Shown one piece after another: positions 56,456 to 57,734 of a stretch of 64,000 nt of DNA (positions are counted from its first letter, which is position 1; every line of letters starts with the position of its first letter). The notes under the pieces were generated by a model. That model was not told the DNA's origin. It did no database searches and saw only the letters and a program-made list of their open reading frames with translations. Source of the stretch: Eledone cirrhosa (lineage: Eukaryota); contig OZ024750.1 in assembly GCA_964016885.1 (NCBI GenBank), positions 5,766,001 through 5,830,000 of the forward strand. The letters are read 5' to 3'. The position numbers and the translations under genes are program-made.

Positions 56456-56744
56456 ATTTCTGTATTAAATAAACATATATAAATATGCATATAATATGTA
56501 TGTGTATGAGTGCGACTGCGTGTGTGTATAGATATATGAGCATTCATATATATATATATATATATATATATATATATATATATATATATATATAGATTTT
56601 GAGTATATGTTGGTTGTATACCAACACCTCAGTATGCAGGCTGGAGCACTCGACGAAGTGCGCAGGTTGGTTTGGTTACTCCGGAGTAATGTAAAATAAA
56701 GTAAATTAAATAAGTCAAATGTTTAGAATTTAGCTTCGTTTATT

Positions 56745-56800
56745 ACTGCTATATATATTTCGGTGACAGCCATCTTTGGCTGTGACCTCTTCAGGCAGTC
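56745..56800 (-). ncRNA. Type-I hammerhead ribozyme (left arm)
   Basis: Exact reverse complement of 56919-56974. Confidence 0.85.
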
Positions 56801-56918
56801 ATATATGATTCCAATTCCTCAGTGAAATAACAACCCAACTAGGAACTGGGCATATCAGAGTATTGACAAAATTATACACCTCAACAACATATGTACTTGT
56901 CTATACCACACTAATTCG

Positions 56919-56974
56919 GACTGCCTGAAGAGGTCACAGCCAAAGATGGCTGTCACCGAAATATATATAGCAGT
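56919..56974 (+). ncRNA. Type-I hammerhead ribozyme (right arm)
   Basis: Stem I ACTGC/GCAGT; CTGAAGA 56925-56931; 10-bp stem II with one C.C mismatch; GAAA 56958-56961; palindromic stem III ATATATAT; predicted cleavage after A56969; AATAAA follows. Confidence 0.88.
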
Positions 56975-57734
56975 AATAAACGAAGCTAAATTTTAAACAT
57001 TTGACTTATTTATTTTACTTTATTTTATATATATATATATATATATATATATATATATATATATATATATATATATATATATATATATATATATATATAT
57101 ATATATATATATATATTTATATATATATATATATATATTTATATATATATATAGAGAGAGAGAGAGAGAGAAAAGAGAGAAATTGGGAGTTACTAGTTGT
57201 TTAGACTAGTAAAACGAAGTTCAACTCTATTTTGGGTTAATATTGGGTCAAAAGATTCTTATGACTGTCAGCAGGCTGCCATCACACGGTGTGTGTAGGT
57301 GTGTGTGTGTGTGTGTAGGTGTGTGTGTGTGTATAGGTGTGTGTATGTATGTATGTATGTGTGTGTGTATATACATATATATGTGTGTGTGTGTGTATGT
57401 GTCTGTGCGTGTGTGTGCATATTTGTTGGTTTTCTGTATGTTTAAATGTATTTATTTTTGCGAAAGAATTCTGTCTTTCGCTTTGTACGTAAACCTTTAT
57501 ACGTTTCGTCAAAGTACGAAACCTCACCTATAAATCTACCAGATGTACAAATGTTTATCTAGTTTGCATATTTTATCACATGTGGCTATAATTATTGTAG
57601 ATGTCTTTGTTTGAACAAGGCGGGAGACGCGTGTTTATATATATATACACACACATGTATATATAGAGAGAGAGGGAGAGAGTACATGTATGTATACTGA
57701 CATGCACATATGCACCGACAAATGTACACGCATT

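Follow-up and report, generated by a model that had tools for sequence, protein, structure and literature searches.

A head-to-head Hydra-clade Penelope-like insertion, 5'-truncated in both halves, in the genome of Eledone cirrhosa, and its probable origin by twin priming

Background

Penelope-like elements (PLEs) of the Hydra clade have been defined by the motifs RWK, DKT, CxCx5C, CxxC and CxH, without CCHH (PMC8557442). In that study, Craig et al. (2021) describe insertions in which an inverted 5'-truncated copy adjoins the 5' end and the tail is often found at one end only, list Penelope-13_HM as having hammerheads on both strands along with an inverted copy truncated at its 5' end, and report other Hydra hammerheads that have different stem IIIs and yet share the (TA)n target. 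How inverted and tandem PLE insertions are formed is stated there as an open question. Dual min-HHRs lying ~100-700 bp apart on opposite strands were ascribed to truncated PLEs by Cervera and De la Pena (2014, PMC4209133), who also describe hammerheads with a palindromic stem III as working in dimers.

The most direct biochemical data come from PAc, a Poseidon element of Anolis (Frangieh et al. 2024, PMC11167929). In vitro, both target strands are cut and extended, two internal starts of the reverse transcriptase (RT) bound the tail, uncleaved RNA is preferred, and the start site does not differ between the two strands; the protein is predicted to be a dimer. For Penelope of D. virilis, the promoter and the start both lie within the pLTR (PMC2377424).

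The insertion in the window

The window, i.e. the whole stretch of 64,000 nucleotides of contig OZ024750.1 that was analysed, contains a foldback insertion with the following features:

56546-56594, no strand: left part of the (TA)n target
56595-56691, minus strand: tail, 97 bp, bounded by end sites A and B
56692-56800, minus strand: left arm of the inverted repeat, 109 bp
56739-56744, minus strand: AATAAA, probable poly(A) signal, left copy
56745-56799, minus strand: hammerhead copy 1, type I, 55 nt, predicted cut between 56750 and 56749
56801-56918: spacer between the arms, 118 bp
56801-56802, no strand: filler of 2 nt at the head-to-head junction; upstream of 56803 the element differs in sequence
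56803-57027, plus strand: putative right-hand, A-primed cDNA, with presumed start at site A (57027) and presumed run-off at 56803
56919-57027, plus strand: right (inverted) arm, 109 bp
56920-56974, plus strand: hammerhead copy 2, type I, 55 nt, predicted cut after A56969
56975-56980, plus strand: AATAAA, probable poly(A) signal, right copy
57028-57153, no strand: right part of the (TA)n target

Here a Hydra-clade Penelope-like retrotransposon has inserted into (TA)n as two head-to-head pieces, each truncated at its 5' end; the left arm and the tail together would be a cDNA that started at site B (56595) and stopped just 5' of the ribozyme. A reading made beforehand from the sequence alone had proposed inverted arms in (TA)n with a tail of ~95 bp, and identical hammerheads on opposite strands, each directly followed by AATAAA; this layout is borne out, down to the identity of the two 55-nt hammerheads. 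The two 109-bp arms differ at 2 positions (56993/56726 and 57013/56706), both outside the ribozyme. The window copy is 96-99% identical to its best-matching copies, in agreement with the young insertion supposed in the sequence-only reading. Judged by the 2 mismatches between the 109-bp arms and the rate implied in PMC13282606, which may not be that of the host, the insertion would be very roughly 2-3 million years old, with a wide error.

That the inversion could be an assembly artefact, the objection raised with the same reading, is unlikely because dozens of loci show a like layout with differing junctions. In three contig sets and one RAD-seq run the depth on the element is very high and the junctions of other copies were seen; among the pieces listed from these sets, none spanned the junction of the window copy. 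Inspection of the window ORFs, as distinct from a homology search, identified no host gene around the insertion. The locus is an ordinary transposon remnant and the foldback probably a by-product, with no sign of a function of its own.

Several other features of the window were recorded. Two AAAATGGCG motifs, which we take to be YY1-like, lie at 55873 and 55940, 650-720 bp ahead of the insertion; the pair is a possible promoter, which would bear on read-through. Positions 37301-40503 hold 178 copies of an 18-bp unit whose core, TTAGGG, is telomere-like; the array ends with (GGTTAG)n. Young tandem arrays with 97% matches are found at 13389-13988 (110 bp, 5.5 copies) and 63499-63997 (56 bp, 9 copies).

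The family and its parent element

In the 3.0-Gb genome, a 27-mer adjoining the ribozyme has 5,491 exact matches and a 32-mer across the ribozyme has 6,488. Genome copy number had been proposed as a check on the structure, and because there are thousands of copies the structure in the window is not due to chance.

By walking upstream through longer copies, we traced the parent element through a 1.1-kb 3' UTR and then into an ORF. One copy (L166:4419-7094) holds this ORF intact, encoding a protein of 892 aa. In tandem copies the tail continues for 54 nt to the start codon of the ORF, and the family unit is ~4.13 kb. The window element has 93-96% identity to the ends of the intact-ORF copy, and the parent ORF is of Hydra type; both support the earlier suggestion of a truncated Penelope-type insertion with inverted pseudo-LTRs.

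Aligned with 8 homologues, the 892-aa protein displays the RT motifs DIASYY and YRDD followed by a C-terminal GIY-YIG-type endonuclease (LVY..C..V / YIG...). The RWK motif is present N-terminally (RMRWKAF), as are DKT, a modified DKG (HADKTNN), a linker CxCx5C (CNCRNPESC) and, near the C-terminus of the endonuclease, CxxC (CKLC) and CxH (CRH); CCHH is absent, no conserved cysteine pair being seen by eye inside the GIY-YIG core of this alignment. A canonical hammerhead and insertion in (TA)n, which characterise the Hydra clade, are both found. The unit of ~4.13 kb lies outside the size of <3 kb usual in this clade, which is a tendency rather than a strict criterion. As judged by these motifs, rather than by a tree, the family is a Hydra-clade Penelope-like element. 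Homologues of the parent protein carry PF26215, and one of them is named from Argonauta; two ORF fragments from another copy gave no match in Pfam. What is new is the family, the clade and the arrangement being already known.

The protein of L166 carries, relative to its homologues, two low-complexity inserts (~130 and ~40 aa) between the RT thumb and the linker, which resemble the N-rich inserts of Adineta PLEs.

Other identities were considered and rejected. A stand-alone unit of 325 nt is ruled out, as copies extend upstream into the 3' UTR and the ORF. Metazoan non-LTR retrozymes consist of short non-coding hammerhead units repeated head to tail, whereas the arms are pieces of a 4.1-kb coding element and no short-unit tandem array lies at the locus. 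A MITE or foldback DNA element, which is copied as a unit with fixed termini and a fixed junction, does not fit a junction and a tail side that differ from copy to copy.

The hammerhead ribozyme

On the plus strand, stem I of the hammerhead is formed by 56920-24 and 56970-74, the core by CUGAAGA (56925-31) and GAAA (56958-61) and stem II by 56932-57, whereas stem III is the palindromic (AU)4. All elements of the type I core (CUGANGA, GAAA and UH, with stems I-III) are present, and the motif is predicted to be a self-cleaving type I hammerhead; a comparison of the window element with Rfam gave no hammerhead match. Stems I and II make up the minimum-energy fold (-17.6 kcal/mol, z -3.1, 0/200 shuffles). 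Stem III, weak in the monomer, is absent from the predicted monomer fold. Double changes were observed at 4 of 17 stem pairs among 7 distinct sequences including sister families (3/500 shuffles), in an alignment whose L152 row is partly aligned and whose L023 row is poor in stem I. The (AU)4 stem III is found again, together with a covarying stem II, in sister families at L016:2130-2195, L060:2469-2534, L107:1000-1065 and L023:1062-1262, and the AATAAA that follows the hammerhead recurs in sister families.

Two points of the sequence-only reading have to be revised here. Stem III is indeed the (AT)4 that it described, but a role in matching the target is not supported: stem III runs straight into (TA)n in 9 copies, 2 of which are repeat expansions of a sister family, versus 6,488 copies that read on normally, and the Hydra hammerheads with different stem IIIs have (TA)n as their target too. 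We therefore reject it as a priming or target-matching sequence. It had also foreseen a competition between ribozyme folding and the duplex of the arms in a read-through transcript. Such a duplex was computed, but the contest would be one-sided, at about -180 kcal/mol versus -17.6 for the ribozyme fold. In read-through RNA of either strand the antisense arm precedes the ribozyme; since it is made first and since the duplex far outweighs the ribozyme fold, the ribozyme would probably be masked in such RNA.

A second, unrelated type I hammerhead-like motif occurs on the minus strand at 49620-49654, between (TA)n runs, and is also present in L087; it is probably a remnant of another Penelope-like family. 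Several other hammerhead families were noticed in the fetched loci, together with Hydra-type and further PLE ORFs (L071, L073, L074, L113), often nested in each other's (TA)n. The pattern scan used for hammerheads is no census, the family's own motif lying outside its pattern.

End sites and pairing of the arms

Arms were sampled in order of position, as the 96 exact matches to the 27-mer on contig C1 up to 68.2 Mb, from the first 100 listed; the pair counts add 30 loci from the same C1 interval that match the start of the 5' hot spot described below. The arms end at two fixed sites, A and B, 98 nt apart: 48/96 end at A and 46/96 at B, and 2/96 continue into the ORF.

We found 52 head-to-head junctions, and the outer ends could be resolved at (TA)n or (TC)n in 39. 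All 39 have one arm per site (A+B). Two of the loci, L117 and L174 (C1 34.39 and 35.42 Mb), belong to a 97%-identical duplicated segment with two adjacent family insertions; when this segmental duplicate is removed, A+B is found in 38/38 insertions (p 4e-12 versus free choice). Among the remaining 13 of the 52 junctions, m19 and m24 look same-ended, with one end away from (TA)n; if both are counted against the pairing and one further A+B pair is added, the count becomes 40/42. In a second sample, chosen by ORF sequence, there are 25 junctions and A+B in 17/17 of those resolved, one locus being counted twice.

Alleles, too, are shared between the arms of an insertion: in 30 pairs, 11 of 317 comparisons at polymorphic sites are discordant versus 129 expected, and the divergence between arms is 1.6% within an insertion versus 4.7% between insertions. 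In 6 of these 30 pairs the arms differ at one to three subfamily sites. The shared alleles reflect a common source lineage and are not proof of a single molecule; a similar pattern would arise from subfamilies that are active in turn, or from partial gene conversion. The places at which the two arms stop are correlated as well, and among pairs outside the hot spot they lie at most 20 nt apart in 9/14 (shuffle mean 1.2, 0/10,000).

Site B, by contrast with site A, can be followed by (CT)n: 4-20 units in 6/52 B ends versus 0/38 A ends, tandem copies having one unit, and at least 3 units in 40/159 B ends versus 0/113 A ends when all loci are considered. In loci such as L011, L014 and L057, CT runs that can reach 20 units or more separate the end of the tail from (TA)n. 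Reiterative, telomerase-like copying at priming is a possible source that fits (CT)n at site B, the rival being later microsatellite growth.

The 5' stop and the extra G

At their 5' side, the stops of 44/96 arms fall into a hot spot of 29 nt, ~115 nt upstream of the ribozyme; 18/96 arms stop in the next 134 nt and 3/96 near the ribozyme cut, which speaks against ribozyme-cut RNA as the main template. About one third of the arms extend upstream of the hot spot or exceed one unit; their template would have been a read-through RNA or a circle, or else the RT would have jumped to the 3' repeat. Genome-wide, a query that begins at the hot spot has 1,593 exact matches, and 489 when 8 upstream bases are added. 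For the first 30 of the hot-spot matches, 27 agree over 8 bases downstream and 15 agree exactly upstream; read by eye, 20 continue upstream and 10 stop.

The base before the hot spot is G in 126 and A in 62 cases genome-wide, the element itself having C. In the fetched loci, G:A is 15:1 at the hot-spot stop versus 9:31 at other junctions, a control from which 57 rows were removed (deletion in the reference copy) and whose loci were partly selected by queries starting at the hot spot. Among the first 100 matches listed, 4 insertions carry the extra G on both arms; the window copy has none. From reading 30 G contexts, about half are explicable by the partner arm or by a duplicated piece.

An RT that copies a cap leaves an extra G, as is the case for L1 and retroviral RTs. 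A sharp stop with an extra G is what run-off at a capped RNA start would leave, and we infer both the cap and an RNA start at the base equivalent to 56803. This base falls on a C-A step, and ~60 nt upstream there is a CCAAT box, a weak pointer as the box lies inside a duplicated segment. The hot spot overlaps a short palindrome, which itself favours head-to-head joining, so that a joining preference contributes to the stop.

Origin of the insertions

Given the behaviour of PAc together with the pairing, allele and stop counts, the simplest reading, and probably the right one, is that the window element arose by twin priming: target-primed reverse transcription would have copied one uncleaved RNA twice, with one strand per fixed site. 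The GIY-YIG domain would nick both strands of (TA)n, and two RT active sites, probably in a dimer by analogy with PAc, would begin synthesis close to the transcript's 5' end, with one nicked target strand as primer at A and the other at B of a single uncleaved RNA. Both cDNAs would be extended toward the cap, where many would run off, often adding a base opposite the cap, and the two cDNA ends would then be joined head to head via microhomology or filler. In the window copy, the A-primed cDNA would have extended as far as the RNA start (56803); the B-primed one would have passed the ribozyme and stopped at 56800.

Poly(A) use and ribozyme cleavage are, like the RNA start and the cap, predictions for the family RNA. 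Both start sites lie downstream of AATAAA, which recurs in sister families. An RNA polyadenylated shortly after this signal would contain A and B at the 5' end alone, and this makes an LTR-like jump attractive but unproven. We tentatively suggest, as a somewhat doubtful extension, an LTR-like PLE cycle of priming on both strands at A and B, strong-stop cDNAs and a jump to the 3' repeat, after which the remainder would be copied; foldbacks would be failed jumps and the (CT)n of site B a telomerase-like addition.

The template could instead have been a ribozyme-cut and re-ligated RNA circle, or a dimer held by the palindromic stem III, copied by two RTs, with the hot spot as an RT stop. A circle model is put forward in PMC4209133, a palindromic stem III suits dimer cleavage, more-than-unit tandem copies exist, and in one pair (m80) both arms start exactly at the cut site. 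A circle, however, has no 5' end, yet the 44/96 arms of the hot spot stop at one place with an excess of G, and starts near the cut site are limited to the 3/96 arms given above. We therefore regard this origin as unlikely for the foldbacks, although a circle may be the template for the long copies.

A further rival is fold-back self-priming, in which a cDNA or an antisense RNA folds at a palindrome and copies itself, the hairpin then being resolved by staggered cuts at A and B (Arkhipova et al. 2013). The palindrome does sit at the hot spot, both arms stop within 10 nt in 12/38 pairs, the arms share alleles, and a staggered cut would also yield A+B. A self-copy must, however, lie inside its template. 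Counting one duplicate, the tail-bearing arm starts >10 nt further 3' in 19/38 pairs and the reverse is seen in 7, the arms do not overlap at all in 6/38, and those of the window copy are not nested; a cut of fixed polarity would, moreover, bind the tail to one arm. As the arms are mostly non-nested, a self-copying hairpin (PMC3846280) is disfavoured, and we hold it to be very improbable here.

We give hardly any credence to a foldback that is a non-autonomous MITE-like or SINE-like unit copied whole, or kept as a functional double-stranded RNA switch: many copies are near-equal in size and layout and a duplex of 109 bp would suffice for ADAR or Dicer, but junctions vary between copies, the tail switches sides even at the same junction (L005 and L020), arm length spans a few bases to >4 kb, and no host gene was found among the window ORFs.

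Twin priming on one uncleaved RNA can be examined further in this family, whose thousands of young copies offer countable rules (one arm per start site, the same source, run-off with an extra G) along with an intact parent ORF; the family makes the open mechanistic question testable, with an intact enzyme gene. Extrapolation (38 x 5,491/96) gives ~2,000 hairpins of 100-300 bp in the genome which, if transcribed, could supply double-stranded RNA much as inverted Alus do.

Comparison with known systems

In LINE-1 twin priming, both target strands prime on one RNA and an inverted 5' part results. The second LINE-1 primer anneals variably and the cDNAs barely overlap, whereas the present family has fixed start sites and cDNAs that overlap in most cases. 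The minus-strand strong-stop DNA of LTR retrotransposons is primed near the 5' end of the RNA and runs off at the cap, and the terminal repeat holds the poly(A) signal; by contrast, the primer in this family would be target DNA and not a tRNA, there is no integrase, and the jump to the 3' repeat is hypothetical.

Like PAc, the family has two putative internal starts that bound the tail and an AT-rich target (PMC11167929). It belongs to another clade, and the start sites, which are inside the ORF in PAc, are here in the 5' UTR; the available text of the PAc report discusses neither a one-site-per-strand rule nor an inverted product. The minimal metazoan PLE hammerheads of PMC4209133 share with this family a short stem I, a long stem II and a palindromic stem III, and the available text of that article, unlike the family counts presented here, contains neither an end-site pairing nor a 5' stop analysis. 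The one-site-per-strand rule and the cap run-off were not found in the literature searched (including bioRxiv 10.64898/2026.07.22.740005); subscription papers and supplements may hold both.

The closest relatives are the Hydra-clade PLEs such as Hydra-1_Obim and Penelope-13_HM, with which the family shares a GIY-YIG-type endonuclease, the RWK, DKT, CxCx5C and CxxC/CxH motifs, a type I hammerhead and (TA)n. Unlike most Hydra PLEs, it has a unit of ~4.1 kb versus <3 kb, a 1.1-kb 3' UTR and the two low-complexity protein inserts. Its tail measures 97-98 nt versus 30-40 in Hydra PLEs, its stem III is (AU)4, and its hammerhead sequence is unlike that of Hydra-1_Obim.
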